Source of the DNA: Nemertoderma westbladi
Taxonomy: Eukaryota; Animalia; Xenacoelomorpha
DNA length: 64,000 bases
NCBI GenBank assembly: GCA_032718475.1
Contig: JAUCBJ010008794.1
Coordinates: 62,001-126,000, forward strand
Reading direction: 5' to 3'
In this document: one piece after another, positions 16,301 through 47,662 of the stretch
Position numbering within the stretch: position 1 is the first letter of the stretch
How the letters are laid out: each line of letters starts with the position of its first letter
Program-made: the position numbers and the translations under genes
The notes under the pieces: generated by a model
Databases searched by the model: none
What the model was told of the DNA's origin: nothing
The model's input: only the letters and a program-made list of their open reading frames with translations

Positions 16301-16312
16301 GATGCGGTTAGA

Positions 16313-19577: not shown

Positions 19578-19739
19578 CCCGGGATCCCGGTTTATCCGGT
19601 TTTAGTTCACGCGTCCCCGCCGTGTATAAAGAGTGAATGAGTTCTGATGTTTGTCGTATATAATATGATATGCAGATATAGATATAGATATAATATTGTC
19701 GTATATGGAAGGCGGGATACGGTAACTAAAGTCCCGGTC

Positions 19740-21268: not shown

Positions 21269-22421
21269 TGTTCGCGCTTTTAGACCTTTAGCAGTTTAAC
21301 CTGCCAATTTTTGGTGTCTTCTTGTTTATAAATCGACTTTAGCCTATGACAATTATTTATTACACTGAAATAACATTAGCCGAAGCCAGTCTATGCGCGA
21401 CCATTCACCCACTGTTAAGGGAGACTGGATTCGGATGCTTGGACTTATTATTGCGTTGTAGACCTACTGTATTATTCGATTGATTGTTACTATATAATCT
21501 CTGACAATATATTTACTTTCGGGGAAATATTAACAGTTCCTTTAGGACGTGGCGCTTTAAGTATAAAAGCAGAGTTATGACTTATACTAATCACAACTAG
21601 ATGGCTACTGAGTTACGTAAAAGGCGCATTCTTTAGGAGATGCTTTATTACCTGTCACACTGCTTCACACGACTTCACACTACCTCACACTGATCTGCCG
21701 ACCGTCACTGAATTTGATCATATATAAGGAGGATAGCAACTGACACATGTAGGGATTATGAAATAGCATTTAATTCACACAAAACCACTATAATGTAAGT
21801 CGCAATTGCTACTGGTAACCTATCCTCTCACCTTCAGTAATCAAGAAGATTGGGGTTTTATGATTCTTTATCGGTGTTCTCCAAATATAACAATATATCC
21901 ATCAACATATATAACAATTAATAACCAACAGTAAAATAAGGCGGTGAACAATCAGTATGTGTTACTTAGTGCAACAGCAGTTGATATGGTTAGGTGATAT
22001 GTAGTCAGGTAACAGTTTTACGTTTCGATAATCCAAGCCATCTAATGTTCTGGTCAAAGTCTGAAACTTCTACAGAAGCACAGAAGAATCCTAAGCCGGT
22101 GTTCTGGGCTTAGAAAAGATAACAACAACACTGAATTGCGTGGGTTTCTGTAGGCCCCTTTCAACGCAAAGTGAAAATCGCTCTGATTGGCCGAACAGAA
22201 CAAAGAAAAAGCTCCACGAGTACAGTAAATCAGCTGGTAGATGTCGTCATCTGAATTCCAGTCTTAGAGTATTAAGCGCATTGCGGCAAAAATGGCTTGT
22301 TTTGTCCGCCAAAGCATACATGCAGACACAGCGGGTAAAAATGGCTTGTTATGTCCGCTAAAACACCTACACAGTATATTGCGGAGAAAAATGGCTTGTT
22401 ATGTCCGCAAAAGCTTTTACA
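21269..22421 (-). repeat. 3' LTR of copy 2
   Basis: On the minus strand GGGAGCGG|TGTAAAAGC...GCGCGAACA. Confidence 0.85.
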
Positions 22422-22500
22422 CCGCTCCCAGAAAATGGGATTTGAGTCTATAAAATATATAAAATCACAGTTTCTAAAATATAAAAAATCCTCTAAACTA

Positions 22501-24016: not shown

Positions 24017-25735
24017 AGCTGTTATATGAGTTTATCAATATTATAATTAATTATAATTAGGCTAGCGGTCGTCGCTGCCTACCCCTCACTGCCCCCGGAC
24101 AGCGCAAGGTCCTCAGCGCTGATGTACTGTCGCCGCTGTGCCTCTCGCCAACGTAGTAGCAACACAACAACAACAATACCCAGCGCGAGTCACTCCACTG
24201 TCCGTCCCAAGGGCTTAGATTTACTTCAGGTTCTTACTGCAGAGGTAGGGCTACTTTCACAACTGCGACTCGCTACTGTAAACACACTTTAGTAGTAACA
24301 TTCACCTATAAACGCACAAATTCCACACAACTGTCACAAATTGTACACATTCTGTCACACATTCGGGTCATTTGTCCGTTAGTCAAGTGCCTTCCAGAAT
24401 GTCACGTTATTATTATGTATCCCTGGATACTAGCAGTGTGCTATTTATTCCGTATGCTATTCAATGGGCAAGCTTTTTATTGTTCTTTTAACTCACTTCT
24501 AATTCTAGCGTGGTTGTTGCTATGGTGACATTATGGAAAGCTAGCGGTAGAATTAGGGTAATTCTCATGCATACAGATCTGGGATGCTATTTAATAGTAA
24601 TTCTTTAATTGTCAATATTCCCCTTTATACATGATTTTATGAATTTTATCGGCTATTGACTATATATTGGAGATTCTCACACACTAATACACTTAATAGG
24701 GTGAATCTCCGCTCCCATGATCCATTAATTAATGGAATTTTGGGAATGTTATAAATTGTATAAAAATGACAATTTATCAAATTCATTAAAAGAGATGAAT
24801 TTAAATTTATTCCCGTAAATTTTATTATTTAATGTTGGAATAAGCACAATTTTATTCCAGAGCATGTCTGGGGACTGGGATCCTTGATTCTAGAAAATTT
24901 GTCCTTTTAAGAGTATCGGTAAGTGCTACGATATCTTAATCGACTAGAATTTTAAAGGATCTAAAATTTAACAGATTTTAATTTATAGATTTTCTAGAGT
25001 TAACTTGTAAGTATTTACTCTATTGTATTTGTTGGACAGATTTTATAAATATTAATAGTTAATATTTAAGATGGGCACCGGTTTATTCCAGAACTTGTCT
25101 GGGGACGTTAACCACTGATTCTAGAATTTTGTCTTTCAAGTATATCGGTGGGTGCCACGATATCTTAATCGACTAGAATTACAGATGGTCAAAGGGTTTA
25201 ACAGATTTATTTGCGTTGTACGCTACTGTTAAAGGGACATCATGCTACTATATGTATTATTTAATATGCGGTATGAGAGCAATATTGCAAGAAGCAATGT
25301 CAGTGAGAAGAGGCAAGTCGTTTCCAAGGTCTACCCAGAGCTTGGTTTAGCTGAGACACGAGGATCTGAACTTTGCATTCCTAATACTCTACTTACCAAT
25401 AATACTTGAATATAGTAGGAGCTTTATTGTACTTTAATAAGTACGGACATTTCATCTTACTGTAGTCACGTATTTATAATATGATATGGACAGTAAGGAA
25501 AGAGAAAAAGAATTATTTCTCGCCGTTGCACTAAATATATAATATAATATAAGTAAGTAAGTAATAAACACTAATATATATTGCACTAATCTACTAAATA
25601 ATCGCTAAAATATCATTCTGCTAAATAAAATTAAAGAAAACGATTATAATCAAATTACATAATAATACATACATAAATATAAAATAATAAAAACAAATAT
25701 AAAATAATATAGTCACACACCCACTCCAGATGCTG

Positions 25736-28700
25736 TTACGTTGGGGAGTCCCTAGATGTTTGTTGGATTAGGGAGGTTGTCGTGGGAAGAGTATCTTGCC
25801 TTCCATAGTTTCTGGACAGTTCTCGGTCTCTTTCCAGTAAACATAAATGACCAACTGGGCGATTGAGTTGTTGTGTTTCGAATACAATTCCAGGTTTCCT
25901 CTTCGTACGGGAATAGTGACGATAGAAACATCGCTTCAAATACACGACGGCCTTACAAAGCCGATTCCAGGATCTATAGTGGTCCATCGCTCCCGGCAGG
26001 AGAGGTGAGAGTCCCGGCGAGGCGTCTGGTGTTCCAGATCTCCAGTCTCTCTCTCTGATCTCCACAACAGATCGGTTCGCAGTGGGGGAGTTTAGATCCA
26101 CAGCGTCGTCCCTGGCAATGTGTAGTACAGACAGATCTATCACGGGTTTAAATAACCTTGATTTACTCGTCCGGGTTTTAGGTTTGACTTTCTCCGCTCC
26201 ATTGGCTTGTCTAATCTCAGCCGTGGTAAGATGGGGAGGCCATTCATCTTCTTTACTTAGGAAGTCGGGTCCACCTAACCAGTCTGGAGTATCTATCAGT
26301 TCTTGAGGAGTTGCTCCTCTGGAAGCGATGTCGGCTGGATTAATCGTCCCAAGGCAATGTCTCCATTGATCTACATTAGAGTTAATATCGTCATTATCTG
26401 AGGAGTGTGGTGTTCCCTCAGTTGTGGTTGTCTCTCCCTCACTGATGTCTTCTTCCCGTTCACTCACCTGATGGCCCTGATCTTTGGGTAGCCTTTCCAT
26501 GAGTGTCCTAAGGGAAGGTCCAGTAAAGTACCAACCTACTCTAGTTCTTCCCGCATAGGTTTGCAGTGGTTGCGGTTGAGCAGGCCGTTTCTCTAATGTC
26601 TCAAGCGCCTCATGCGCATTTTGGCCGATGAGTATCTGTACCCCTGGGTAGTCGGTGTTGAATCTAGGTATCTCATGCTGCTGGGTGAAATCGTCTTCAT
26701 CCCAGTTATAAGGTTCCACTTGGCTGGTAGCGAAGTTCTTTATCGCCACCATTTTTACTGACCTTATACTGTGTTCTCCTAGTTCATCCTGGGGGGTGGA
26801 CAACGCGCCTACATAGTAGTCTGTAGCTACTGTAGATTTCCAAACCTGCATAATTCCTGAAAGATTCAACTTAGTTCGGAACTTGGGTTGTCCAGCAAAG
26901 ATGTCTTCGGCTAGTTCTTTGTCGATGAATGTTCCTGTGCTGCCGGAGTCAAGGAGGGCGTTCACTATATAGCTCTTTTTTAACCCGTGGACTCTCAACT
27001 GCACTACGGGAAATTCCCGGATTCCTACGTTGGAAGTTGGCGCTTTCCAAAATGCTTGTCGGTCCGGAATAGTTAGGGGGAGCTCGCTATCGGTTTCAGT
27101 CTCATACGTAAGCGCTCGATACACCGCGGTGTTTGTCATATAACAGGATTCATTTTCGTCGGAGAATTCGTCTGTGTAGAATCCTTCCATCTCAGAGCTG
27201 TGGTCAGTATCGTTCACATCACTGAATTGGACATGTAGTTCGGGCTTACTTACCTGACTCGTGCGGGTTCTTTCAAATTCTGTGTGCAGCAAGATATGAT
27301 GTTTCGCGCCGCACTTAGCACACCTAGCATCTGAGTAACAGGTCCGCCGTTGGTGTCCTTGTCTGAGACAATTATAACACAACCGCTTATCCCACATGAC
27401 ATCACGTCTATCCTTTAGGGATTTCTTTAAGAATTCATCACACCCACTCAAGCGATGGGGCCCGTCACACAATACACATTTGGGCTTGATGTTACTTACT
27501 TTAACCTGTGCTGTGTGGTGCACACTTGTTCTTTCCTCAGGCTTTCTTCCATGGATTTTCTTAGGAGACGTAGGAGTTTTTGTTACCTGTTCTCTCCTGT
27601 CACTGGTTCGAGACTTAAATTTACTTATGTCTTTAGGTGCTTTGTTGACATAGTAAGATCTTTCGGTGTCTTTCCCGCTGTTTTCCTCGTGGGAAGTTTG
27701 GCTTTTGTCATCGTCGGTATAACACACTGGTGTTACCTTTCGCCTAGAAACGGAATTTTCACTTACCTCACTTTCAGGAGTCTTCTCTCTAGACTGTTTT
27801 AGGAGTTGTAATCTTACCTCTCGGTTTAAGAATGACAGAAGGTCCATCATGGTTGGATCTCTATGTTGTTGGTGCATCAAATAGAGAACCTTTTTGTCCC
27901 AGCGAGTACCTACTTCACCCTTTGGCAAAGCTGATGCTAAGGCTCCTACAACCATAGAATTCTGGTATTCATGAGACTTACCTAACCAATCTAGTTGTCT
28001 ACAGATCTCCTGAATCTCATCGGAAAACTCTATAATCCCGCTGCTAAGGAACTTTCGGGGCGCTACTAATTTCGCATACAAATACCTAGCTATGTTTGTC
28101 CTATTACCATACCTGATGTTTAGTGTATCCCAAACTTGTCTTAATCCATCTGGATGTCCAATAAACTTTAACGCCATTAATTGGGAGGTCCTTCCAAACA
28201 CTCGATGAGGAATCTAAGTTTCTCTCCATTAGATAGTACAGAGTTCTGTATGTTATCTTTGTAATATTCATTAAAAGGTAACCATTTCATCTCATCTCCA
28301 TTGAACTTGACGATCTCTCCCACCTTTACCGCTTACGGGCTTCGGTTCTAGCCATTTGACGCGTAAAACTTTCTTGGGCCATCGTATTATTTAATATCGA
28401 GTTATCGGTATATAAATTTCTAGGATTATGATCAGGTCTATATGGAATATCATTGTCAACAGGTTTATAATTACCCTTAATAGGGTTTACTATAGGAGTT
28501 TCTACTTCACTAGCAGTATAGATGCGTGTAGGCTCCACACCTTGCGCATGAAATACTTCAGACCTAACAGGTTGACACATTGTTACAGAGGGTGGTGGTA
28601 TACTCCTTTGTATATTTACTAATTTATTGCATTCTAACGCGATACTCTGCTGCACTTCTTGCAACTCTAACCTACTTTCCCTTACTGTTCCCTTGAACTG

Positions 28701-30772
28701 TTGAACAGTCTCCTGCATCCGCCCGAGCAGGAGATCCATCCCCCGCCATCCCTCATCCACCCACTCGACCGCCGAAGCAGGAGCCGCCAACATAGTAGCG
28801 GGTAGACGAGGGACGACGGGCGACAAATCGTTGATGTCTTGCTCGGCGTCCAGGACTGGGGCGGATTCAGGGCCTATTCTACTGGGCACAGGTAGTTTAG
28901 TACTGTGCAAAGGGAATTTAGAGTTAGGTTTTGGAAGTACAGGGGTCTCTATCACAGAGGGAGTGGCTTTGAGAACAGGCCTAATTATTTCAGGCTCATC
29001 TACTATAGTAGGGAGTCTTTCTTCCCTAATAATTTGGTCTGTAGGCGCAGGATTACTCAAATCTACACTAGCTAGTTGCCTTCTCACGGCTGGAGGCAAA
29101 TCAGGCAATTTCTGCCGGTGCAGGGCCCTTCTACGTCTGCTGGAACGAGATTTATTTCCTCTACCTTCAGGATCTGTTGTATCGCCTTCATCAGAGGATG
29201 TAAATCCCTGTCTCTTGGGAGTAGATCGACTTATCAGCTGCATCTGACTAGCTGTTAACTGTTTATTCATGTAGTCTTGCTTCTCTTGAAGATTTTCCAA
29301 CTCTAGTTGGGTTGTCTCTTCAGATGCCTTCCGTTCTGCTTCTACCACTGCCTCCGCCGCAGTTCTTTCGGCTTCTGCCGCTGCCGATTTTCTTTCTGCC
29401 TCTGCCACTGCCGCTTTTCTTTCTGCCTCTGCCGCTGCCGCTTTTCTTTCTGCCTCTGCCACAGCAGCTTTTCTTTCTGCCTCTGCCGCTGCCGCTTTTC
29501 TTTCTGCCTCTGCCACTGCAGCTTTTCTTTTCACTTCTGCCGCTGCTGCTGTTGCTGCCTTTCTGTCTTCTATTTGTTTTTTCTTTAATTGTTCTTCCTG
29601 TTCCCTAACGATGCGGATTCTTTCATCAAATTTAGCTCGATCCGCTTCTAACCTTTCCGCATCTATTGCGTCCAACACAAACTTGGCTCCTTCACTATTA
29701 GGACGAAGTCCAGCCATCCGTCTCCTCAACTCTTCGTCACCTAGAAATCGTTGATAGACCGACAGATATATGTCAATAGCGTCTTTCTTCTGAGGTTTCT
29801 CTGCTGTCGCTTCGCTTCGCTTTCCACTTGAGAAAAGGTAGTGTCTGTTGATTCTCCATGGGTTGAGCGCTCAGCCAGCTGAAATTTCCACTGGGCCATT
29901 CCTTGAACTTTGAGACCCACCCGCTGGAATCAAGTCTTTACGGCAACTTGCAACGACGTGTCTTGGCTTCTTTTCGAAGCTTCCTCAAAGGCCGATAGGA
30001 TTAGTCTGATTCTTAGAATTCTTTCTCGAACTTGATAAAGCAGCTCTCCCTGCTCTTGAGGTCCTTGGGGTTGTTGAAACAGTTGTTCCTCTAATCGCTC
30101 CAGAGAGCTGAAGAATCCCTGTACATATCCTGCTGCTGACCTCTTCCACACAGCTGGATCTCTAGTGTCCCTTACCACTCCCATCCTGTATAAGTCCTCC
30201 CAGGCAGCTTCCGATAAGTTAAACGGGAGTCCGGGTCCGGGGAAATTCCATTGCGTCTCGACAATAGACTTCAGTTCCTCCTTCGTGTATCCCACATAAC
30301 TGTCCTTGGTCGATCGCTTACTTCTCGCTCAATCCATTTGATGTTCCTCCACCGCAATCAATACTCTAGTGAGTACGGCTTCAGGAAGAATGAGAAGTGG
30401 ATCCGAATAAACCGCTTCTGCCATCTTTGCTCCGCGCTCGGTTGTCAACTCTACAGTATCTGAACTACTGGAGCTATCGGGCCGCTGAGAAATAAGTTCT
30501 CGGCTCGGGTGTTGCTGTTGTTTAACAGCTGCCTCTTGGTCCCGCTTGACTTGAGACCTAGTGCCTATGATAGACCTATGGTGCTCTACTAGCCTAGGGT
30601 ATGACACTACTACTGTAGGGATGACCTTGCTTACAGTAGGAGGGGACTTGGACTTTGGTCTCAGACGTTCTATACTCTTAGCTGAGTCCCAGATCTTTTT
30701 AAGACCCTGTCTAACACTCATTCTAGCACTTTCTAAGAGACTATCTGACAGTGTTTGTTTTGTGTCAGACAT
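25736..30772 (-). pseudogene. Gag-protease ORF of copy 2, frameshifted
   Basis: Segments 30772-30329, 30295-29930, 29729-28326 and 28201-25736; all except 30295-29930 are homologous to 7766-12187. Confidence 0.9.
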
Positions 30773-30876
30773 GTTTGATTGTACAGTTGAATGTCTACTA
30801 CTATAACTACAGTTAAAGTAAGTGTTATTAAATTGTAAATTTAATAATTAATTAATTAATAATTGTAAACAGTAAA

Positions 30877-33800
30877 TTGTTGTTTTATTTCTGTTGTGGT
30901 TCGAATGGGTGGTTGAATGTCGTCTATTTTGTGCCAGACTACAGCTGCAAAATATGGAATGCACTAGCTTGTGGAATTAACATGCATATTTCCTTTTACC
31001 TCTTATTTTTCTCGTTTTGGTTAATTTTATATTTTTGTGTGTTTCACTATTCGCCTATGCAGCTCTCCATCGCATTACTATTTCAAATTTTATTTTCTAC
31101 ACTGTATCCATTTATAAATAATGGGTATTGATATTGGTCAATGGCGAGCTGCAATAGGTAATTTTCACAGAAACCTTTGTAGAATATCTATGCCCAATGT
31201 TTTTGCATCGACTTTCATTGGATTTTTTTTAATGTTCAACCAATTAATCATTTTACTTTTTGCTATTGTAATTTTTTTGCTTGTTGCTGGTGATGTTCAC
31301 CCCAACCCAGGGCCATCGCCAATCCGTTTTATGCAAACGAACATCCGATCGTTAGTTGCAAATTGGGACTTTCTACCTAATAGGCTATATATGGACTTTG
31401 ATATTATCGCTGTAGTTGAAACTTGGTTTATGGCCAAACATAAATCTGAAATGTTTAGATTATCCAACTTCTGTGATCCTATTAGACGAGACCGAAACTC
31501 ACTTGGGGGAGGCCTCGCCTTATATATATCAAATTCCATTACTTATAAGCGCGATTTATTAATTGAATGCATTGCACCTAATTATGAATCATTATGGCTA
31601 TCCTGTAAATCAGCAAACAAAAAATTTATTATTGGGCTTTTTTATAGACCCGATCATACCGATACCATGTTTTGGGAGTCAGTAAATGATATGGTAAATG
31701 AGGCTAAGGGAATGGGCTTCCATGAAATTATTTTACTAGGTGATTTTAACCAAGATCTACTAACTGTGGAAAAGAGTCGTAATTTATGTAATTTTATTTC
31801 CCGCCAAGGTTTTCTTCAATGGGTGAGCGAGCCAACACGCATTACTCCAACATCTTCATCTCTCCTTCTGCCTGTAATTACCTCCTTACCGAATGTCGTA
31901 TCTGGAGTTCACGTTCTGTCACCTATAGGTAGCAGTGACCATTCTGTTGTCTGTTTTAAATATAATTTTCCCATTAACCATGAACCAGCATTCTCTAGGA
32001 GGATCTGGTTATATAAACATGCAAATTTAAATTTATTTCGCCAACTTTTAATTGCCGCCAATTGGGACAACATATATAATGACTTCCATACTGTGGACGA
32101 GGTCGTATCGGCTTGGGTTTCAACATTTATGTCCTGCGCCAATACTGCAATACCGAACAAGGTTATAACTGTCAGGCCTAACGATAAACCCTGGTACACA
32201 ACGTATTTATGTAAGCTATGTCGCAAAAAGAGCGTCTCCACAAACTGGCCAAAAATAATAATAATTCTAGCTCTTGGTTAGCCTTTTGCTCAATACGTAA
32301 CCGTTACATATCGGATTGTCGCACTGCAAAGAAAAATTATTTTAGAACACTTTCAAATAAACTATCAAATTGCTCTGTTTCTAGCAAACAGTGGTGGTCT
32401 ATTTGTAAATCCCTTATAGGCACCGAGCACCATCGTGATATCCCAGTCGTCTCATATAACAATGTTACAGCTGTGACGTTACTTGAAAAGGCAGAACTTT
32501 TTAACTAATTTTTTTGTGATCAATATATACTAGATGACTCATCATTCGTACTACCAGCCAATGCAGTACCGCAGCCTACTTTAACTACTGTAAATTTTAA
32601 CCAGGATAGTATTCTGTGCGACCTGAAACTTATTGACTCGGATGGGGCTACTTGTCCCATTGATGATGTATCTAATAAAATGCTCAAAGCCGGCCTACCC
32701 GTTGTTATTCACGAAACAGTCCGTTTGTTTCAATATATTTTTGACAATGCTACACATCCTAAAGCCTGGAAGTCTCGTTTTGTTTTTCCCTTACCTAAAA
32801 CTGATATTTTGTTTTTTTGTGCCCATTTCAGGCCTATCGCACTGACGAGTAATTTGGGTAAACTTTTCGAGCGATCGGTACATAGTGTTCTTTACAACTA
32901 TATCATTAATTTCTTATCCAAATTTCAGTCTGGTTTCAAAAAGGGTGATGGGACTATTTACCAGCTGATATCTTTATACGATGCACTAGCCAAGGCACTC
33001 GATTCTGGGAAAGAAGTTCGCATTGTTTTTCTCGATATAAGCAAAGCGTTCGACAAGGTACATCATAAAGGTTTACTCTACAAATTGGCTAATATGGGCG
33101 TGGGGGGAAATTTTCTTTCATGGATATCTAGTTATCTTGCTGACAATTTTCAGTGTGTCGTTGTTAACGGGGCCACTTCATCGTGGCTTGCCGTCCTAGC
33201 AGGTGTTCCGCAAGGTTCGGTTCTAGGGCCGCTCCTCTTTCTTGTGTATATCAATGATATAGTCGATATTGTTAACAACAACATTAGTTTGTACGCTGAC
33301 GATACTGCCTTATATGTTGAAGTAAATAGCCGCAACTCCATGTCTTCATCTGAGTCACTTAATCGGGATCTCAATTCCATCTCTCAATGGGGTGCAACTT
33401 GGCTTGTTACTTTTAATGCATCCAAGACTGAGTCTATGGTTCTTTCACATCGGAAAACCAGGGACTCCGGTCACACTGTGTTGTCCTTAAATAATATCCC
33501 CATTGTTGAGGTTAATGAGCATAAACACCTCGGCTGTATACTGACACCAGACTTAAAGTGGCATTTGTAGATTAATTCCATGATTAGTCGTGCAAGTAGG
33601 AAATTGAACATGTTGCGCTCGGTAAAATATATTGTCAACAGGAAAGCTCTTAATAATATTTATGTTTCATTTATTAGATCTACCTTAGAATACGCTAGTC
33701 CAGTCTGGGATAACTGTTCAGAGGAATTAAAAAACTCCCTGGAACTACTGAACAAGGAAGCGATTAGACTAATCTGCAAATTAACAGTATCTTGTTCTTC

Positions 33801-35215
33801 CTCTAATTTATATGCTGAGTCTGGGCTATGTACTCTGCAAGAGCGCCGAAACTTTCCGAAACTTGTAATTATGTATAAAATGATGAACGGGTCCGCCCCT
33901 GGTCACTTAAGGGCCACTCTCCCTTCAACTTTTAGCAGTATTAGCCAACGGGCCACTCGCAATTCGGCAGACTTGCGTCCTCCTTTTGCTCGGACCAATT
34001 TCTATAAAAATGCGTTCTTACCATCATCAGTAAGGCTATGGAACACATTGCCCATTGAGATCCGTAATTCTGAAACCCTCCAATCCTTCAAAACTAACAT
34101 ATACCCCTTTGTATGCAATGTCCACTATGTTCCACCATATTACTTAATGGGTTCGCCTAGAATAAACAGTTTGTTATCCCGCCTGCGGTGCAATTGTTCA
34201 TCTTTAAATTTCGACCTATTTTCAAACTTCATCAAACCATATAAAAGTTGCCAGTGTGGTCACGTTAAAGAGGATGCATTCCATTACTTCTTTGAATGTC
34301 CTTTGTACCATAACTTCCACCTCATTATGCAAGCCAATATTGTTTCTCTTGGTTTCCGTCCCTCATTGTTTCTATTATTGCAAGGCCCCCAAAATAAGAA
34401 TGATCTGAACGGGGCCGAATCAATAATTTATGCAATCACTGATTTCGTAGAGAAGACAGGAAGATTTAACCATTTGGGGTACTAAAATAACAATAATAAT
34501 AATAATAAGCATAATAATTATAATATAAAGTGCCGTAATTTGTTTTTATTTCATTTATAAATCTAAAAATAAATAAAAGTACGTCCTGCTCCAGATTACG
34601 GACTGTTACCTGAAATTGTATGTTGTTGTTATATTTTTTAATTTATTTTCGTGGAGCCATAGAACGAGTTGGAGGCAACCTGGGTGATTAAACAAATTTA
34701 ACCTGTACAATATTACATTTCATGTTGCAACATGTAGCATTATTCATTGTACGAGCTATTTATTTAGTGCCTATTATACTCATTGCAATACTTAACGCTA
34801 ATTAATATTACACTAAGAAATTGTAATATTGTATTGTAATAATGTATTTTATATTGAATTATTTTGTAATTTGGTTTTGATTATATATAATCGTCTTACT
34901 TTTGGGTGTAGTTCTATCTAACTCTAGTATGGATCGTTAGTGCATACCTCTGCAGCAGTCTGGGCGTGTATGTATGAATGTTGTGTATGTTTGCGTATGA
35001 GTGGTGTGTGTACTGTTTGTATGTATGTGTTCAATGTTCGTATGATATGTGTGCTAGTTGTATGTCATATTTTTTTATTAAGAATATCAATCTAAAATAT
35101 ATTGGTGCCGGTGCAATTTATATAGTTTATCGTTATGGATGAACGGGCTTAACATAAGCTTAGGCTTGTTGCCCAATCATCCTCACCAATTGAGGTAAAT
35201 AAATGTTAAATGAAA
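30877..35215 (+). mobile_element. CR1/L2-group LINE (EN-RT, disrupted), with an N-terminal 2A-like motif
   Basis: EN: NIRSL, ETW, GGG, YRP, GDFN, SDH. RT: FRPIAL, FQSGF, LDISKAFDKV, GVPQGSVLGP, YADD. Long 3' UTR ending aataaatgttaaatgaaa. Confidence 0.9.
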
Positions 35216-37548
35216 TTAAAACTCGATTAGTCCATTGGAATCTAGACGTATTATTCGAGGAGGAGAAAATCCAAAGATATGGAAATGTGGAGACGTATAC
35301 CACTCGATATATGAAGTATAGTGATCTCCCTGACGCTAATCAATGCGCCACCTTGTGGCATCCGGTAGGGATGACCCTCGAGAACGCCACCAAAGAGTGG
35401 AATGAAACTCTTAATATCATTGAGATGTATGGCGTTGTTACTTATGATAACGAAGGTAGCGTTCCAATCGGAGAGTTAGGAACTACGCGCATGATACATA
35501 TACGCGGATTAGCTGGCTCCACTCACGTGTTTACGCGAGCGTGTTCCGACGTGATCGATTATTCCTTCGAAACTCTCACCGAAACGCAGAAGAATCTCCG
35601 ACATGGACAATTCGAACTCGCGCAGCGTTACGTCATCGACACCGAACGCAAACCGGCCATGGGTATCGATGGATCGATGTTACCCCAACCCGTTCTCGAG
35701 ATGTTATTCAACGAAAGAATCGTTAAAATCGGCTCAGCTGTTTATGGAGATCTCCAAAACGACTTTCGGAATATGGAGAATATCCCCTATCCTTTCGTGG
35801 ATACTCAGCTGATAGCGCCTTGGGCCGAAGGCCGAGGTTTCTTTCGCACCATGTATGCTAATGTGTCTAGCAACATTACAAAGGTGCAACGAACTTCCAT
35901 CGGACATCTTGCCTTTCAGGAATACGGGTGGAATTTCAAGGTCGGAAATCCCATCAACTATCAACAAGTATACGGAGACCATTATTCTCGATTATACTTT
36001 GACGGACCATTAACCGCACCTGGCGCCGTGTATAGCTTTATGAGTGTTCCACTCCGACCCTCCTTAGCTATCTACACGATCTTCGAAAACACCGCACTTT
36101 CCGGTTGGCTAGCCGATGTGTGCAGTCGTACTATACGCGCCCATCCATTAATCCTTGGGACCAAACTCGCTAAGCTAGATGAACATAATAAATTCATCCG
36201 CTTTGAATGTTTCCGACGGTTTTTAACCCCGTTTCGCAACGTGGATAGCCAATTCAAAGACCGCGCTTTGACCAAGCTCAGCTTAAGAGACTCAGCTGCG
36301 GAGAAGTTGGATAGCGCTGGATTCGCTATTTTCCGAGACATTTGTGTGATAAACCTGCACTCCTCGGTTATCCAAAGACCTCGGATCCCCACCGGTTATT
36401 CTGTCGTGGAAATTCAGACGGTAGGTCCACTTGAGGAGACGGCCATACCTACCTCAACTATACAAGGGGAAGACGAACCCATATGTTTAGAATCGGAAGA
36501 GATTCAGCCCCCCACGGCTCGGAGTAGCGATAGTGACTATATATTGGAATGGTATCAAGGTCCACAGTGTCTTACTGCGTATGATTATCGCCATGCCAAT
36601 TATGTTTCTCGACAACGTTGTCGGCTGTGCGCATCGAGAGACCATATTACGTCTATGGACACCAACGATCTTTGTTCCTATTTCCACGAGCAACCGTCGA
36701 TGGAAATCTATTGTGCATATTGTCGGCTTAATAATTTGCACATTTTTGCCGTCTGCCCCCAATTTATGACTCAATGCCATCATTGTCAACTAAAAGGACA
36801 CGCCAGCTTTGATTGTCCCTTTAACCATGATTTAGAGAGCGTAGATGAAATGATTGTACTACGTTATATCAGAGCTTGGGAAGCGAACGCTGATTTACAT
36901 TGTGACTCACGCCATCGCTATTATCCCGGACGCGCCTACGAAGGAGTTTATGCGTTCCATCCATATTTGTTTGCCTCCGTCGAGCAGAAATCGCGCCTAT
37001 CAAGTTATGAACTATTGAAGCGCGTTGGAGAATGTATTTCAACCAAATATGTACGTAAATTTCTCAGGAGCATTAATCCGAGTGACATCCAGTCTTACAA
37101 CTTAATAAACTTTATCCGTCAGGACCCTGCCTATGGAGACTTATTCGTCAACTCACACCCTGAGTTACAAGAAGTATATCGACGGCCTTACGAGTATCGA
37201 GCCCGCGAACGCGAGTTAGAAAGAACCATTAAACCAAGGAAGTTTCTAACTGCCTATGGTCCACCCACGGCCCTCGTTCAGACCACTCGTAAAGGACCCG
37301 TAAGAGCGGCTGTCTTGAAACGAGCTCTCAAAGCCGTTAGACCCCTCTCCCCGGACGTTGATGTCAATCAACCCGGTACTTCGACCGGTGGATATACCGA
37401 TCGCAATCCCATACCTTCTGATGCAATCATATTGCACCCTTCACCCAGGAGTTATAGCCCTCCTAGTAAAGTGGCTCGCCCCAAAGAGAAAAGGACTCTT
37501 GCTAGCTTCAAAAAACTGCGTAAACGCCGTCCGCGCAAGAAAGACTAA
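35203..37548 (+). CDS. BEL ORF2 3' part: DEDDy-like (RNase D/WRN/Mut-7) exonuclease + three zinc knuckles; 5'-truncated at the LINE
   Basis: ExoI VVTYDNEG; LPQPVLEMLFNERIVKIG..VYGDL (ExoII); FVDTQ; SIGHLA; PLRPSLAIYTIFE (ExoIII). Knuckles CRLC..H..C, CAYC..H..C, CHHC..GH..C. Followed by PPT and LTR. Confidence 0.7.
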   Translation: MLNEIKTRLVHWNLDVLFEEEKIQRYGNVETYTTRYMKYSDLPDANQCATLWHPVGMTLENATKEWNETLNIIEMYGVVTYDNEGSVPIGELGTTRMIHIRGLAGSTHVFTRACSDVIDYSFETLTETQKNLRHGQFELAQRYVIDTERKPAMGIDGSMLPQPVLEMLFNERIVKIGSAVYGDLQNDFRNMENIPYPFVDTQLIAPWAEGRGFFRTMYANVSSNITKVQRTSIGHLAFQEYGWNFKVGNPINYQQVYGDHYSRLYFDGPLTAPGAVYSFMSVPLRPSLAIYTIFENTALSGWLADVCSRTIRAHPLILGTKLAKLDEHNKFIRFECFRRFLTPFRNVDSQFKDRALTKLSLRDSAAEKLDSAGFAIFRDICVINLHSSVIQRPRIPTGYSVVEIQTVGPLEETAIPTSTIQGEDEPICLESEEIQPPTARSSDSDYILEWYQGPQCLTAYDYRHANYVSRQRCRLCASRDHITSMDTNDLCSYFHEQPSMEIYCAYCRLNNLHIFAVCPQFMTQCHHCQLKGHASFDCPFNHDLESVDEMIVLRYIRAWEANADLHCDSRHRYYPGRAYEGVYAFHPYLFASVEQKSRLSSYELLKRVGECISTKYVRKFLRSINPSDIQSYNLINFIRQDPAYGDLFVNSHPELQEVYRRPYEYRARERELERTIKPRKFLTAYGPPTALVQTTRKGPVRAAVLKRALKAVRPLSPDVDVNQPGTSTGGYTDRNPIPSDAIILHPSPRSYSPPSKVARPKEKRTLASFKKLRKRRPRKKD

Positions 37549-37626
37549 CTGTTTAGAGTATTTTTGTATTTTAGAAACTGTGATTTTGTATATTTTATAG
37601 ACTTAAATCCCATTTTCTGGGAGCGG

Positions 37627-38869
37627 TGTAAAAGCTTTTGTGGGATAACTGATACGTTTGCCTTTGCTGGCCAGTTCCCCCCCAGGCGCTGGAATACTCT
37701 AAAAGGGTTCTCGGACTGTATATATATTCCCCTCGCCCGCAAGGTACCTTTACAGGTGTTTTAACGGACATAAAAGTAATTCTGCTATATACGTGTTTTA
37801 GTGGACATGGTAAGGCAAAAAACCTGCAATGCACCAACTACCTTTCACAGCTTAGCCGTGATAATTCATATTACGACATCTAACAGCTGGTTGCTGACAT
37901 GGAAACAGCCATTGGACGCACGGTTCTTTGTTTGGCTTGAGCCAATCAGAGCGATTTTTCCTGTCGACGTGTAGCTTTTTAGTCGATCATAAGGAGAGTG
38001 TTCAGTCTTACTGTTTTTTCTTGATACTTTGTTGTTATTGCTGTCTAAGCCAGAAACACCGGCCTTTTGGGAAGAACTCTAGTAAACTGCTTAAATTATC
38101 GAAAGTATAAACTGTTACCTACTCACTTACTCAATAAATCACTAATTAACATGCTCACTTAATTTAATTGCATTAATCATATTGTTTTTACTGTTATTTA
38201 CTGTCAGTTATTAATTGTACCTATTTGTTGATGGAAATATTGCTATTTGGATAATACGGATAAATCACCCAATTCCCAATTTTCTTGATAACACTACAGG
38301 TTAGAGAGACCGGCTATACATAACAATTGCGATTTATATTAATGTGGTGTGTATTGAATCCAATGTTATTTAGCAGACCCTACGTGAGTCAATTACTGCT
38401 CTCTTTATGTTTGATCAAATATACTGACTGTCGGCAGAATAGTGTGTATGATTGTGATTGGTAACAAAGTATTTCCTAAAGAATACGCTTTATACTTTAA
38501 TCATAAGCAGTATCGTTGCGTTTAGTATAAGTCCTAGTTCTGTTTAAATAGATAAAGCGCCACGTCCTAAAGGAACTGTTAATATTTCCCGAAAGCCAAT
38601 AATATCTGTCAGAGATTAATTATTAACGATCTATCGAATAATACATTAGGTATACACTGCAACCTTACACTGTAATAATAAAATTTAAGCATCCGAATTC
38701 AGTCTCCCGGGTGTAGATCCATCGGGTGAATGATCGCGCATGGGCTGATTTCGGCTAGTGTTTTGCGTATTAGCATAAAATATTGTCGTATGCTAAAGTG
38801 GTTTTAATTAACGAAAAGACATATAAATTTTGGCAGGTTAAACTGCTAAAGGTCTCAAAAGCGCGAACA
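37627..38869 (+). repeat. 3' LTR of copy 3
   Basis: GGGAGCGG|TGTAAAAGC...AAAAGCGCGAACA. Confidence 0.85.
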
Positions 38870-40410
38870 GGAGCAGTTAGCTGGCGTTCACCCCTAACGT
38901 GTTAGTTAGGAAGCAGTTAGCTGGCGTTCACCCCTAACGTGTTAGTTAGGAAGCAGTTAGCTGGCGTTCACCCCTAACGTGTTAGTTAGGAAGCAGTTAG
39001 CAGGCGTTCACCCCCAACGTGTTAGTTAGGGAGCAGTTAGCTGGCGTTCACCCCTAACGTGTTAGTTAGGAAGCAGTTAGCAGGCGTTCACCCCCAACGT
39101 GTTAGTTAGGAAGCAGTTAGCTGGCGTTCACCCCTAACGTGTTAGTTAGGAAGTAGTTAGCTGGCGTTCACCCCTAACGTGTTAGTTAGGAAGGAGTTAG
39201 CAGGCGTTCACCCCCAACGTGTTAGTTAGGAAGCAGTTAGCAGGCGTTCACCCCCAACGTGTTAGTTAGGGAGCAGTTAGCTGGCGTTCACCCCTAACGT
39301 GTTAGTTAGGAAGCAGTTAGCAGGCGTTTACCCCCAACGTGTTAGTTAGGGAGCAGTTAGCTGGCGTTCACCCCTAACGTGTTAGTTAGGAAGCAGTTAG
39401 CAGGCGTTCACCCCCAACGTGTTAGTTAGGAAGCAGTTAGCTGGCGTTCACCCCTAACGTGTTAGTTAGGAAGCAGTTAGCTGGCGTTCACCACTAACGT
39501 GTTAGTTAGGAAGCAGTTAGCTGGCGTTCACCCCCAACGTGTTAGTTAGGGAGCAGTTAGCTGGCGTTCACCCCCATCGTGTTAGTTAAGGAGCAGTTAG
39601 CTGGCGTTCACCCCTAACGTGTTAGTTAGGAAGCAGTTAGCAGGCGTTCACCCCTAACGTGTTAGTTAGGGAGCAGTTAGCTGGCGTTCACCCCTAACGT
39701 GTTAGTTAGGAAGCAGTTAGCTGGCGTTCACCCCTAACGTGTTAGTTAAGAAGCAGTTAGCTGGCGTTTACCCCTAACGTGTTAGTTAGGAAGCAGTTAG
39801 CTGGCGTTCACCCCTAACGTGTTAGTTAGGAAGCATTTAGCTGGCGTTCACCCCTAACGTGTTAGTTAGGAAGCAGTTAGCTGGCGTTCACCCCCAACGT
39901 GTTAGTTAGGAAGCAGTTAGCTGGCGTTCACCCCTAACGTGTTAGTTAGGAAGCAGTTAGCAGGCGTTCACCCCCAACGTGTTAGTTAGGGAGCAGTTAG
40001 CTGGCGTTCACCCATAACGTGATAGTTAGGAAGCAGTTAGCAGGCGTTCACCCCCAACGTGTTAGTTAGGGAGCAGTTAGCTGGCGTTCACCCCTAACGT
40101 GTTAGTTAGGAAACAGTTAGCTGGCGTTCACCCCCAACGTGTTAGTTAGGAAGCAGTTAGCTGGCGTTCACCCATAACGTGTTAGTTAGGAAGCAGTTAG
40201 CTGGCGTTCACCCCTAACGTGTTAGTTAGGAAGCAGTTAGCAGGCGTTCACCCCCAACGTGTTAGTTAGGAAGCAGTTAGCTGGCGTTCACCCCTAACGT
40301 GTTAGTTAGGAAGCAGTTAGCTGGCGTTCACCCCTAACGTGTTAGTTAGGAAGCAGTTAGCTGGCGTTCACCCCCAACATGTTAGTTAGGGAGCAGTTAG
40401 CTGGCGTTCA
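38870..40410. repeat. 40-bp minisatellite, ~38 units
   Basis: Unit GGRAGCAGTTAGCWGGCGTTCACCCCYAACGTGTTAGTTA. Confidence 0.97.
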
Positions 40411-43400
40411 GTCCCGCGGTCTTTGATAGCATCAATAGTGACGCCGTGCTCTCCTGTGTACTCCACTCCCACGGTTCCCCAGGTCCCTCCGGCCTCGATG
40501 CAGACGCCTGGCGACGCGCCATGACAGCCTTCGGTAATGTATCCTGCGACCTTAGGAAGGCCGTGGCAGGGGTAGCGAGGCGTTTGGCGACGGAACTCAT
40601 CGACTCCGCGAGTTTACTTCCCTACAACGCGAGTCGGTTAGTGCCACTCGATAAACAACCAGGGGTTCGACCAATTGGTGTGGGCGAGGTATTACGGAGG
40701 ATTATTGGGAAGGTGGTCGGGAGGATAGCGAAGTTCGACCTTGGTGAGCTGGCGGGTAACACCCAACTGTGTGCGGGGCAAGTCGGTGGTATAGAACACG
40801 CTGTGCATGCCCTACGGGAACACTTTGAACAGCCTGAATGCGACGGCCTCCTTTTGATTGACGCAAAGAATGCGTTCAACGCCTTGAATCGCCGTTTAAC
40901 CCTTCTGAACTGCCAGGTACTTTGTCCAGTTCTCTTCACCATCCTAACCAATTCCTATCGGGAACCGTCGCCGCTTTTCGTAGGAAATGACGTTATCTGG
41001 TCGCAAGAGGGGTCAACCCAAGGGGATTCTCTGGCGATGCAGATGTTTGCAGTCGGCACATTGCCAATGGTTAAGAAACTAGAACCTATTCTTATGAATT
41101 GCCACACGTATGTGGCTTCCCCCGTCCAACCTTTGGGTTCCCCCCACCAACCTTCGGGTCCCCCCCTCAAACCGGCGGGTTTCCACATCCAACCGGCGGT
41201 TCCCCCCCTCCAACCTCCGGATTCCCCCCTCCAACCGGTGGGCTCCCCATGCCAACCGGTGGGCTCCCCCCTCCAACCGGTGGGCCCCCCGCTCCAACCA
41301 GTGGGTTCCCCCCTCCAACCCTCGGTTTCCCCTCTCCAAAATTCGGGCTCCCCCCTCAAACCTTCGGGTTCCCCCCTCCAACCTTCGGATTCCCCCCTCA
41401 AACCTTCGGGCTCCCCCCTCGAATGGGCGGTTTCCCCCCTTCAACCATCGGGTTCCCCCCTCCAACCTTTGGGTTCCCCCCTCCAAACTTCGGGCTCCCC
41501 CCTCAAACCTTTGGGTTCCCTCATCAAACCTACGGGTCCCCCGCTCCAACCGGCGGGTTCCACCCTCCAACCTTCGGGTCCCCACCCCCAACCGGTGGGT
41601 TCACCCCTCCAACCATCGGGTTCCCCCCTCCAATCCTCGGGTCCCCCCCTCCAACCATCAGGTCCCCTCCTTCAACTATCGGGTTCCCCCCTCCAACATT
41701 TGGGTTCCCCCCTCCAACTATCGGGTTCCCCCTTCCAATTTCCGGGTTCCCCCTTCCAACCTTTGGGTTCCCCCCTCCAACCTTCGGGTTCCCCCCTCCA
41801 ACAGGCGGGTTCCCCCTTCCAACCGGTGGGTTCCCCCCTCCAACCGGAGGGTTCCCCCCTCCAACCGGTGGTTTCTCCCCTCCAACTGGCGGGTTCCCCC
41901 CTCCAACCAGGGGGTTCCCCCCTCCAACCTTCGGGTTCCCCCCTCCAACCGGCGGGTCCCCCCCAACAACCATTGGGTTCCCCCCTCCCAACGGCGGGAT
42001 CCAAATTCCAACAGGCGGGTTCCCCCCTCCAACAGGCGGGTTGCCCCCTCCAACAGGCAGGTTCCCCCCTACAACCACAACCGGCGGTTTCCCCCCTACA
42101 ACCGGCGGTCTCCTCCACCCAACCAGGGGTTTACCCAGACCGAGAGGCGGTTTCATCGGATCCGATGACCTTTCCGGGTATCCACAAGTGGTATGCGGAT
42201 GATGGCAGCGCTGCTGGTAACCTCGGAATGCTACGTGACTATTGGGAGGAAGCGGCTACCATCGGGCCTGGCTATGGATATTACCCCACAAAGGCATTTC
42301 TTATTGTGAAGAACTCAAAGCGCGAAGAGGCCAACGCGATTTTCTCTGGCCTCCCTGTTGAAGTGGTCGATGGTCATCGAGTCCTGGAGTCCGTAATAGG
42401 GTCCACATCCTACTGTGCTGGGTATCTGGAGAAGCGAGTTGATGTCATCTGTCGCCAACTAAAACACCTCAACGATTTCGCAGTGACTGCTCCCCACCCC
42501 GCGTACGGATGCCTGGTCCGTGGCTTACAGCCGAAGGTAAACTTCTTGGCTCGCACCACACCCGGGTTAGTCGATCACTTGGATCGAGTTGAGGAAACAC
42601 TCTCCAGCACAGTCATCCCGACACTCACTGGCAGATACCCACCCGGCCTTTCGGAACGACAGCTGCTGGCACTCCCTGTGAGGGAGGGGGGGCTAGCTAT
42701 AAATCAACCTCAGGATGAGGTGGAAAGCTATGAGAAGTCGTTGCGACTCTGCGAGCCCCTACGGTGTTCGGACCCAGCCGCTCGTACAACACAGCAGACC
42801 ATCCTGCGTGAGATCCGCAAGGAGCAGGATGAGGTTGTGAAGACTCGATGTGTGGCGGTTGATGCTCAACTGTCCGGAGACGCCCTCTACCATCGGACAC
42901 TGGCGAAGGAGCGTGGAGCGTTAGCATGGCTCTCGGCCCTACCCATTTCCAGATACAACTTTTCCCTACACAAATCCGCTTTCCGGGATGCGTTGTGTCT
43001 GCGATTTGGGTGGGAGCCCCCGAGGCTGCCCGCCAACTGCTCCTGCGGTGCTGTATTCACCATCTCCCACTCCCTTCACTGCCCTATGGGAGCCTACCCG
43101 ATCCTGCGGCACAACGAGGTCCGCGATTTCCCCGCCGAGCTCCTCAGCGAGGTCGCACACGACGTTGAGGTGGAACCCCATCTCCAGCCGATCGAGGGCG
43201 AGTTTTCCGCCTGAGATCTGCTACGGTAGACCCGGAGGCCCGTCTGGACGTTGCGGCGAGTGGGCTGTGGGGTGGGCGCTTCGAGCGGGTGTATATCGAC
43301 GTCAAGGTATTCAACCCTCTGTGCTCCTCCAATCCTCGCTCCATGGATGCTGCTTACAGCAAACATGAACGAGAGAAACGGAGGAAGTACGAGGAGAGAA

Positions 43401-44539: not shown

Positions 44540-46239
44540 TTAATAAGATAGGGCAATGATTACACCAAATATTAACCCACATGACTGCAATAAGGTTGAT
44601 ATTGCAGAAAAACCTGAGTGAGATGTAAAGACTGGCGATCCTGCGTTTATACCAATTCCATTCTCATTTTTTTGCGAAATATCTGCACTTTCAATGACTT
44701 CTTGTTCCTTGTCTGCAGTCTCACTGACTTCGTTTGCCTTAACTTCAGTTTCAATGATTTCGTGAATATCATCTGCAGTCTCACTGGCATCAGTTGTAGA
44801 AACAAGCGAGGGTTTAATTGTTGGATTTTTTAATTGTGGAACATCAGAAGAAGTTGATTGTGAATCTGAGTGATTGTCATCCATCCCATTTTGGTATAGT
44901 TTTCGTAGAACCCCTTCAGGGAGTTCTCTAGTCCCGTGCATCTGTACACTCCAGTCCCTGAGCGCGACATCTCCTCGTGGGTTATCCTTGGACGTGATTG
45001 TTAATGTCCACCTCCCGGAAGGGTTCTCGCCCCAGTTGTGGGTCGTCATAAAGGGCCATCTGATGAACCCCCTATTCGTGGAGTCAGCCGACCTGTAACC
45101 TAGCAACTCGGACCGCGTACCTCGCGGGGAATCGAGGAAGATTCGTAAGTTCCCTCGTTTAGGCGCATCCACTGTAACTAAGCTCTGTACGTGTTCTAGA
45201 AACCGGACCTGACCACTCTCGGCGTTCTGACACCCGTCGGTGTCGATGTAGAACCTCATCGATTTTCCCGCAGGGAACCGACGCGTGTCGTTGTTCCACC
45301 TCTCGCTGCATACCCGTTTCCCTGGCAACGTCATCCACGTCTGCGCCAACTCGACCATAGCTTTAGCGTCGACCAATCCGTAGCCGTAATTATTACTCAC
45401 CCATCGTCCGACCCCATTCAACTTCCAGTCCCCTGTAGAGAGATGCCGTCGCCGAGAGGTTAGCATTATGATGTACTGCATATCGCGCCAGGTGAGACTG
45501 GGGTTGGCCTCTAGGGTGAGGGCGCAGACGCCAGCGACCAGAGGTGCAGCCGCCGAGGTGCCGGAATGACCGGAAGTGCACCCGTTGCGGAGATCCGTGG
45601 TAACGATTCGTCCTTCACGGTGGTTGCCGCTGCTGTACGCGGTCGCCAGCGTCGAACTGCACGGCTCGCTGTAATACGGGACCCGACCTTCTTCCGACGC
45701 GGCGCTGATACTAATAGTGTAGATACTCGCAGTGTAACCATCGCAACTGCATTCGTCGCCTCTTCCTCTTCCGTTCCCGGACGCCCACACGAATATGGAA
45801 CCCAATCCGTGTCGACCCCGACTAGCTCCCTCGGAGAGCGCCAACCTCGCCGCCCGATCCGGCCCTTCCACCACCCGGCCGTCGTCCTCCGGCCCCCAGC
45901 TCGACGAGTAAACGTCCACGTGCTGCCGCTTGTACCCCAACGCGAAGGCCTCAACCGCGTCCGTTACTTCCCCGTCCAACATCTGTAAGCCGCCGATTCG
46001 CGAGCGGAACGCCACCCCGATGGAACAGACTCCGTTGCCGCCCACCGCCGCCACCTCCCCAGCGCACCGAGTTCCATGACGGTTCTCGTACTGGTTGCCT
46101 GACAACCGGTTGTACCTGGGGGTTGGGTCGTGATCAGAGTTGATGACGTCATAGCTGGCCTTCGGGTCGTAATTCGCGGCGAGGTCTCGATGTTTACTTT
46201 CTATTCCGTCATCGAGAATTGAAACAACAACTCCTTTAC
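44540..46239 (-). CDS. Furin/kexin-like proprotein convertase, exon 2 (S8 catalytic domain, P domain, acidic stalk, hydrophobic C-terminus)
   Basis: Acceptor cctgcag|GT AAA; ILDDG (Asp), HGTRCAG (His), WASGNG (Asn), GTSAAAP (Ser); P domain LEHVQ...RGNL...WGE.P.G.W.L. Confidence 0.95.
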
Positions 46240-47662
46240 CTGCAGGAATGTAATTTGTAATTTATAAATGTATTCTTCTAACAGTTCTAAACAAACAAAA
46301 TTTTAGTTTAAATTTCATTTTAACTTTAAATTTACCTGGTGCAGATGTAACAATTTAAATCTCGGTAGGTCTTGATTTCAAAACTGAAAGTATATAATAT
46401 CCTTATACGGTACATAATCAGATGGGGGGGGGGGGGGGGGGGTCTCTTTAACGCAATTTACAGGTGATTGCACCCAAAATTGAAACTGTGCTATTGTCTT
46501 TCGGTTATAATTTTGGTTAGAAATGTCACTGTAAGTTGTTTCTTTCCCTTAGTAGATATTTAACATTGTTAATTCACCGATAAAAGATTTTACTTGCATG
46601 GGCAATTGCATTCCATAATCGAGAAACCGCTTCATTGGAGAGCCAACGAGTATTCCAACATTTCCTAGAGAATGTAGCTTAAAGCCTGAGTAATACTTTT
46701 GTGGCCTCTACAATTGTTTCTCTGCGGCACACTTTGATACTTGTTCCGAGGAAGGAAAGTTATCGGCTCGGCGTGATCAGGGTACCATTTATGTTTAAAA
46801 ACGGCGGTATGATGTCAAGTTACTGCTCTTGTTTCCCAAAATAAATGACCATTCGGTTTTTGTAGGTGAAATATTTGATCTTATTTAGTTCCTCGATGAC
46901 AATATCCAGCATAACTTACATCTCCGTGGCGTTCCGTGCAATAAGCATGATGTATTCTGCGTAACAGAGAAAGCCCAGCCAGATAACTTTGTTATACTAT
47001 GTAACTCTACTATGTGGATTGTTTAATCCGATTCTAGAATATGGACTATAAATATTTTGATTAATACAACCCGGGTGGGTTAACTCGAGTACCACTATCT
47101 GGCTGAATGGATTTCGTATTATCTACGCATAATTGTATAATTATCGTGCAATTGATTAATTTGTTAAACGCAAGGTCATTGACCAATGACCATATGCATT
47201 GTAATATATATAACATGTTATTGTATTGTGTTGTAACACGTTTAACCTCACATACCGATTCATTGCGGTTATTCCTGATTACAAATCAGCAATGAATTTG
47301 ATTTCGTTTGAAATGTTGGATCTGTATGGCCGTTGGCCTACTTTTATTTTGTGCATAACTGATTAAATAGTTTTAACTCCATGTCCATGTAACCTAGGTT
47401 ACATTTAGTCTAATACTAGTACCCTCAAGGTAATTTTTAGCCGGACTATTATACAAGTTTTATAAGTCTTATTGGTATCTGTATAACCTTTAGCTATGGA
47501 CAGTGTTTCTGGTTATTTTAATGTTTTATCTGCCAATTTTACTGAATAAATGCCGGCTAGACCGGGCGCAACAAGTTAATAAAAAAATTATTGTCCCATG
47601 GCCAGTTTTATCGAGCGTCAGTAGGACATTGTTTGTATAAACCAGGAATAAAAATGGCGAAA

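Follow-up and report, generated by a model that had tools for sequence, protein, structure and literature searches.

In a 64,000-nucleotide stretch of the Nemertoderma westbladi genome (contig JAUCBJ010008794.1; hereafter the window), a long terminal repeat (LTR) retrotransposon of the BEL/Pao superfamily carries, in the position of env, a second open reading frame (ORF2) whose product is predicted to join a DEDDy 3'-5' exonuclease domain to three zinc knuckles. ORF2 is a gene of this multi-copy element, is present in many divergent copies and is under purifying selection. The copy in the window is 5'-truncated, and two sister copies, here called copies 1 and 2, have lost the nuclease and knuckles while retaining gag and protease (Table 1). 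The initial annotation of this stretch had proposed an accessory RNA-binding nuclease possibly used for counter-silencing or RNA processing.

The assignment of the gene to the element rests on its C terminus and on the sequences that follow it. The 781-codon open frame first noted is present at 35203-37548 on the plus strand, where the chance of such a frame at the window's base composition is ~5e-19, and it is followed as described by a polypurine tract (PPT)-like sequence and the family LTR. Its final ~45 residues were also correctly linked to the other copies: the C terminus is 88% identical to copy 2 over 49 amino acids and 85% identical to copy 1 over 33, and a further fragment at 18317 matches the end of the frame at 91% over 172 nucleotides. 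A purine tract precedes all three complete 3' LTRs, as expected for the BEL/Pao PPT (~10 nucleotides). The LTR downstream of the frame is 77-81% identical to the three others in the window, and all four (mutually 77-92% identical) are 1,109-1,243 bp long with TGT...ACA ends, in line with BEL/Pao LTRs (0.2-1.2 kb, TG...CA). With C terminus, PPT and LTR common to three other copies, the frame belongs to the element, and it sits at the env position proposed for it. The superfamily is identified from the sister copies, which are 84% identical to each other and contain a BEL/Pao gag (DUF1759, PF03564, E 6.9e-13 in copy 1) with three gag knuckles at residues 906, 939 and 958, the last ending in His, and an aspartic protease with a weak Pfam match. 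Within ~60 codons after the protease in both copies lies a motif that we take to be the end of the BEL/Pao RNase H.

The start of the frame does not belong to the element, a point overlooked at first. In runs X1 and X3, contig cover jumps at 35215 from ~220 to >100,000. Each of the four runs also has contigs that extend 5' of this position into sequence unrelated to the adjoining long interspersed nuclear element (LINE) as loose ends with medians of 14-235 letters. The ATG, which lies within the LINE 3' tail, and the first four codons are therefore LINE-derived, and the window frame is a 5'-truncated gene copy, not a complete ORF of 781 residues. The APE, reverse transcriptase (RT) and zf-RVT domains of this LINE span 31118-34485. 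At 30823-35215, copy 2 (minus strand) and the ORF2-bearing copy (plus strand) stand back to back via the one LINE, each without its 5' part, and the LINE tail gives the truncated ORF2 an in-frame ATG.

Contigs covering 951 bases of ORF2 number 2,901 in run X1 and 1,008 in run X3 and are spread over all four identity classes, with high cover running along the entire frame into the LTR; the multi-copy claim rests on this count and spread, summed contig depth not being a copy number. Differences at a share of at least 35% number 123. Among the best-supported 40 listed, 34 are synonymous, versus 22% expected, 34 fall at third positions (p ~2e-11), and no insertion or deletion occurs in the nuclease stretch. 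A wider contig mapping gives 8 synonymous among 13 listed ORF differences. Because the 40 are the best supported of the 123, the synonymous excess is not an estimate of the nonsynonymous to synonymous rate ratio (dN/dS). These data bear directly on the view that ORF2 is a passive passenger, a piece of a host gene captured recently, or that its DEDDy likeness is spurious. The window domain has no significant curated-family match and no usable model, and homologue searches of a 5.8-billion set gave nothing new, all of which would fit this view. The intronless frame, the many divergent copies and the strong synonymous excess have already largely refuted its passive form, making a passenger or single host gene untenable, and the occurrence of the same two-domain layout in two unrelated proteins, with several methods agreeing on one family, leaves the view as a whole very improbable.

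The domain very probably adopts the DnaQ/DEDDy fold, because several independent routes agree on one family. The NCBIfam RNase D profile TIGR01388 matches 65 residues around the ExoII motif (E 7.8e-4), and 24 of 30 ESM Atlas look-alikes carry PF01612 (best 0.92, 165 of 256 features), a lead only, the three best clusters (0.92-0.94) being without a name. Two proteins emerged from a full HMMER scan of 1.84 billion representatives: P0003 at E 1.5e-6 and P0004 at E 3.5e-4, both encoded on metagenome contigs 9-11.5 kb long. Like the window ORF, each has a nuclease-like domain followed by a charged linker and three knuckles, together with an aromatic motif common to them. The three proteins are 25-29% identical in alignment, and a profile of the P0003 and P0004 N-terminal domains scores the window ORF at 51.8 bits, compared with at most 3.6 for 1,000 shuffles. 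PF01612 is carried by 27 of 30 Atlas look-alikes of P0004 (best 0.95) and matches P0003 in Pfam at E 0.039, under the curated cut-off. A three-way profile run against Protein Data Bank (PDB) sequences at E up to 10 retrieves EXD2, Egalitarian and RNase D, all three of them DEDDy proteins. The model of the P0004 domain is half-confident (mean predicted local distance difference test score, pLDDT, 48; first 100 residues mostly 64-89), and all 12 of its Foldseek matches at E<=0.001 are EXD2 chains (best E 2.9e-5). VIA gives Z 8.0, a value middling on its own, for EXD2 (root-mean-square deviation 3.4, 90 aligned) and for a family-A polymerase. The first 41 of 50 VIA rows are, judged by their titles, what we take to be DEDD-fold proteins, and the matches include WRN, polymerase proofreading domains, Egalitarian and EXD1.

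Several results for the window domain itself count against this assignment. Pfam returns nothing even at E 10; the RNase D match, at 18.8 bits relative to a curated cut-off of 298.95, covers the ExoII region only; and the three PDB sequence matches are each non-significant (E 0.49-2.2). Structure prediction, suggested as a check, failed for the window domain, whose AlphaFold model is unusable (pLDDT 31.7; best Z 3.4, to unrelated chains), and gave a partial model for the relative P0004. Single-sequence PDB searches are empty, and a phage search gave no match. Word-indexed searches of the 5.8-billion set, within the range of lengths covered, yielded none among 4,647 candidates for P0001 and only P0004 itself among 7,995; the same search with alignment A1 (0 of 5,366) is uninformative, as it missed P0003 and P0004, which are in the set. 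Locus scans confirmed no relative among 69 and 3 stretches of viral contigs or among 211 and 52 of metagenome contigs. Relative to EXD2, the WRN exonuclease, Nibbler (Mut-7) and RNase D (PF01612), the gene is alike in its ExoI D-x-E, its ExoII Asp, the PL-x6-Y-x3-acid spacing of ExoIII and the P0004 fold. It differs in that the last Asp is replaced, a knuckle array takes the place of HRDC, helicase or MUT7-C domains, and its scores lie below every curated cut-off. Neither MUT7-C nor the Nibbler N-terminal helical domain is matched by Pfam on the 781-residue frame or a 219-residue upstream piece, and no HRDC or helicase domain was detected alongside the nuclease domain. The DEDDy type proposed for the domain is retained, whereas the label Mut-7/WRN-like is too narrow for matches spread over RNase D, EXD2, Egalitarian, EXD1, Nibbler and WRN.

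The motifs first described are all in the frame: YDNE (D82 at 35446, E84), KIGSAVYGDL (D183), FVDTQ (D200) and PLRPSLAIYTIFE (Y291, E295). D82, E84, D183 and the Tyr column are invariant in the window protein, P0003 and P0004. None of the 40 listed differences among copies falls on D82, E84, D183, S281, Y291 or E295, which, with 83 of the 123 outside that listing, is no evidence of constraint. ExoIII has two candidate registers with the same PL-x6-Y spacing. Y277/S281 is chosen by MAFFT on longer pieces and by BLAST against P0004, and Y291/E295 by the trimmed alignment, the hidden Markov model (HMM) and BLAST against P0003. The Y291/E295 register, and with it the original ExoIII motif, is the better choice with fair assurance because P0003 is closer than P0004 in the nuclease domain (63 versus 36 bits) and has in common with the window protein both the insertion giving rise to the first look-alike and the sequence Y-x3-E-N-T. 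On this register the tetrad is likely D-E-D-E in the window protein and P0003, while P0004 has the full D-E-D-D-y set. Two observations tell against an intact active site. Scores for the constrained registers are split, P0003 favoring E295 (53 versus 24) and P0004 favoring S281 (16 versus -9), and the canonical last Asp of Y-x3-D is absent in either register, there being no Asp between residues 268 and 300. With that Asp missing in both registers the predicted activity is no more than plausible, and the balance tips only slightly toward a D82-E84-D183-E295 site, with Y291, that still cuts.

The missing fourth Asp, with Ser in the alternative register, invites comparison with family members that bind RNA without cutting it. 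A weak or dead nuclease might serve as an RNA-binding adaptor that chaperones or routes element RNA or decoys host PIWI-interacting RNA (piRNA) factors. EXD1 and Egalitarian share the fold family, are among the fold matches of P0004, and set a precedent for RNA binding that does not require cutting, EXD1 in piRNA biogenesis and Egalitarian in RNA transport (PMC4712191; bioRxiv 10.1101/2025.08.03.668247). As reported in PMC4712191, EXD1 is an RNA-binding protein of piRNA biogenesis, inactive and without the first ExoI acids, and the mouse protein also has Glu in the last position. Both are host genes, however, and the ExoI Asp lost by EXD1 is retained in the window gene. The ExoI and ExoII acids are invariant in three very distant proteins, P0004 has a full tetrad, and the closer relative P0003 backs the Glu register with the shared Y-x3-E-N-T, leaving an adaptor somewhat unlikely.

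An adaptor would find additional RNA-binding surface in the three knuckles and basic tail, features that any RNA-directed function of ORF2 could use. The three knuckle arrays lie where they were first placed, and all three are kept in P0003 and P0004; the description of all as CCHC-type holds in the canonical sense for the third alone (CX2CX4HX4C), the first being CX2CX4HX9C and the second CX2CX5HX4C. The knuckle family profile matches HIV-1 nucleocapsid (E 1e-3), a protein that binds single-stranded nucleic acid. Comparison with the element's own gag as a source of the knuckles revealed nothing beyond the motif itself (14-residue matches). ORF2 has no membrane segment (best 19-residue hydropathy 1.33), and an env function is rejected on that ground.

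The probable size of the intact gene comes from the sister copies. When their ORF2 remnants (~1.4-1.5 kb) are compared with the window ORF over its initial 200 bases, the best local match is 17 of 21 nucleotides (35255-35275); its end in copy 1 coincides to the base with the start of the match to 37386 onwards. A match within two bases of this joint would arise by chance in ~0.4% of cases (5 of 1,400). Immediately upstream no likeness is visible, and the evidence for homology is moderate. On the assumption of homology, ~35276-37385 would be missing from copies 1 and 2, and the whole ORF2 is likely to comprise ~1,200 codons (~450 + 757), close to the >1200 residues originally estimated by adding the N-terminal parts at 24016 and 13845 to the window part. 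The upstream ~450 codons have no family match where scanned. A further deletion variant of ORF2, present in runs X3 and X4, skips 35261-37138 (~1,877 bases) and with it the nuclease and knuckles. The parent element, once its absent pol parts are added, would measure ~16-17 kb, compared with 4.2-10 kb for the BEL/Pao family (PMC8742986).

Such a length could favor an aid to fidelity, and ORF2 might be a replication helper: an active nuclease, packaged via its knuckles, that trims the 3' ends of element RNA, transfer RNA (tRNA) primer or complementary DNA, or that proofreads reverse transcription. The likeness of the knuckles to retroviral nucleocapsid fits this possibility, as do the closest folds, since EXD2, WRN and polymerase proofreading domains act on DNA and RNA. 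Processing of element RNA 3' ends was first proposed for the ORF3 nucleases of rotifer elements (PMC5408684). Set against these points, ORF2 is not fused to Pol but stands apart as its own ORF beyond a 1.7-kb non-coding spacer, and most BEL/Pao elements replicate without such a gene, which makes a helper role rather unlikely. The genes listed for BEL/Pao elements are gag, pol and env only (PMC8742986).

No RT, RNase H core or integrase motifs are found in any frame of copies 1 and 2, and the nuclease and knuckles are missing too, a non-autonomous state that the initial annotation overlooked. Between gag-protease and the broken ORF2 (starting at 13845 and 24016) lies the non-coding spacer, ~1.7 kb and AT-rich. 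Differences between the two copies in gag-protease are distributed 85/70/178 by codon position (824 sites each), compared with 28/18/26 (~140 each) in the alignable start of ORF2. Gag-protease is thus kept under purifying selection and the ORF2 remnant is not; as the third-position skew is confined to gag-protease, the two copies are a non-autonomous BEL/Pao lineage with gag-protease retained and ORF2 decaying. The 138-bp 3' LTR remnant of copy 1 is 100% identical to its 5' LTR, which suggests that the insertion is recent. A ~2.1-kb AT-rich leader with short tandem repeats stands ahead of gag in this copy. No TGG-starting primer-binding site is present (5658-5690) after its 5' LTR, the only one in the window, and the window has no tRNA genes. 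Fragments of other LINEs (RT with DUF6451; endonuclease region) occur at 2413-3696 and 15219-16318, and the 3' LTR of copy 1 is cut short by one of them.

Mut-7 is a DEDDy protein of small-RNA pathways, and the explanation preferred for ORF2 is likewise directed at silencing. The accessory gene product, a predicted 3'-5' exonuclease joined to three knuckles, would be translated from a transcript of its own arising in the AT-rich spacer, would hold RNA as its substrate through the nucleocapsid-like knuckles, and may act in trans as a diffusible factor on RNA ends. Such a factor is suggested because RNA-binding and end-trimming modules are combined in a separate gene that is selected in the parent lineage and dropped by still-spreading derivatives; copies 1 and 2, which keep gag-protease yet lack the nuclease and knuckles, fit a trans-acting product. 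The substrate might, at a guess, be unmethylated small-RNA precursors or slicer-cut fragments of element RNA, the removal of which would starve piRNA or small interfering RNA (siRNA) amplification and blunt silencing of the element. Counter-silencing by a trans-acting exonuclease is put forward tentatively, as a possibility that falls somewhat short of probable. Two considerations temper it. Loss of the nuclease in non-autonomous copies fits any trans product, RT and integrase included; and Egalitarian is reported to keep five of five residues for a known job that needs none (bioRxiv 10.1101/2025.08.03.668247), so that conserved acids are no proof that cutting is the function. The adaptor and the replication helper are close to counter-silencing, and present data separate none of the three. 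A bolder form of the counter-silencing proposal is quite doubtful: ORF2 would be the founder of a widespread family of retroelement silencing suppressors. Its product, an actively cutting D-E-D-E-y exoribonuclease equipped with nucleocapsid-like knuckles, would degrade piRNA and siRNA precursors in trans; the gene would reside in a giant BEL/Pao element of ~16-17 kb, have counterparts in distant animals (P0003, P0004) and serve non-autonomous gag-protease derivatives that dropped it.

Captured DEDDy ORFs have a published precedent in bdelloid rotifers, as the initial annotation stated. They are described as ORF3 of the LTR elements Juno and Vesta (PMC5408684) and as extra ORFs of Athena/Terminon elements (PMC6431247, PMC5718144). 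Like the window gene, rotifer ORF3 is an RNase D-like DEDDy protein in an extra ORF 3' of pol, with no membrane segment, an altered tetrad (DEED) and activity not shown (PMC5408684). The window element differs in its BEL/Pao gag and protease marks, Pao occurring in that paper only as the name of a reference author, and in its likely D-E-D-E tetrad, three knuckles, likely ~1,200 codons and many copies. Purifying selection is clear in the window gene, whereas the rotifer genes are reported there with no significant departure from neutrality. With Belpaoviridae the element shares the DUF1759 gag, three gag knuckles, aspartic protease, TG...CA LTRs of ~1.2 kb, PPT and third gene position (PMC8742986; PMC3118150). 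The third gene there is env-like, and exonucleases go unmentioned in both. The word exonuclease does not occur in PMC3118150, PMC9094657, PMC535339, PMC1262188 or PMC2774666; its single use in PMC11662393 is unrelated, and PMC8220671 yielded clade names alone. The literature searched, with most subscription papers outside reach, gave no case of an exonuclease in a BEL/Pao element, and absence in print is not established. Some Cer elements of Caenorhabditis elegans that belong to this group may carry an RNase D-like domain. DEDDy extra genes as such are already known; new here are the BEL/Pao superfamily (unless the Cer elements prove to be a precedent), the layout, the tetrad and the evident purifying selection. 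The gene bears on whether animal retrotransposons make enzymes of their own that counter small-RNA silencing. The published rotifer cases are low-copy, neutral-looking and never assayed, and the window gene, being multi-copy, clearly selected and endowed with a compact domain suited to expression just as it is encoded here, makes the question directly testable. If the reading is true, a second LTR superfamily has captured a nuclease, and env is not obligatory as the third gene of BEL/Pao elements.

Table 1. Element-related features of the window, with positions counted from its first letter.
Feature	Position	Strand	Basis or remark
Copy 1: 5' LTR 4433-5657, gag-protease ORF 7733-12187, broken, internally deleted ORF2 13845-15116, 138-bp 3' LTR piece	4433-15254	+	
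Fragment: last ORF2 codons, PPT, LTR (19425-18317)	18317-19580	-	
Copy 2: broken gag-protease, broken, internally deleted ORF2 24016-22501, PPT, 3' LTR 22421-21269	21269-30823	-	
LINE: endonuclease, RT, zf-RVT; two stops; replaces 5' part of ORF2-bearing copy	31118-35214	+	profile matches, cover step
Frame codons 1-4, from LINE 3' tail	35203-35214	+	cover step, contig starts at 35215
Element-derived part of ORF2, codons 5-781 of the frame, 5'-truncated	35215-37548	+	contig cover step, selection
Predicted DEDDy 3'-5' exonuclease domain, ~residues 51-303	35353-36111	+	profiles, relatives, fold of a relative
ExoI motif D82-x-E84	35446-35454	+	invariant in three-way alignment
ExoII D183	35749-35751	+	invariant; inside RNase D profile match
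Likely ExoIII Y291-x3-E295	36073-36087	+	trimmed alignment, HMM, BLAST; alternative Y277-x3-S281 at 36031-36045
Three Cys/His zinc-knuckle motifs, third canonical	36619-36816	+	profile
Basic C-terminal tail, 14 Lys/Arg of 30, common to other copies	37456-37545	+	
PPT-like purine-rich tract, 8 nucleotides, one C	37619-37626	+	same tract before LTRs at 22421 and 19425
3' LTR, 1,243 bp, TGT...ACA ends	37627-38869	+	LTR comparison

Elsewhere in the window, tandem arrays occupy 38870-40410, 16313-17107, 41110-42136 and 51268-57662, with units of ~40, 22, 21 and 42 bp, respectively; the first begins exactly at the end of the LTR. On the minus strand at 44540-46261, an uninterrupted frame of 573 codons encodes a proprotein convertase of the furin type (Peptidase_S8, E 1e-51; P domain, E 2e-22), its catalytic motifs all lying in one exon, either an unusually large exon or a retrocopy.

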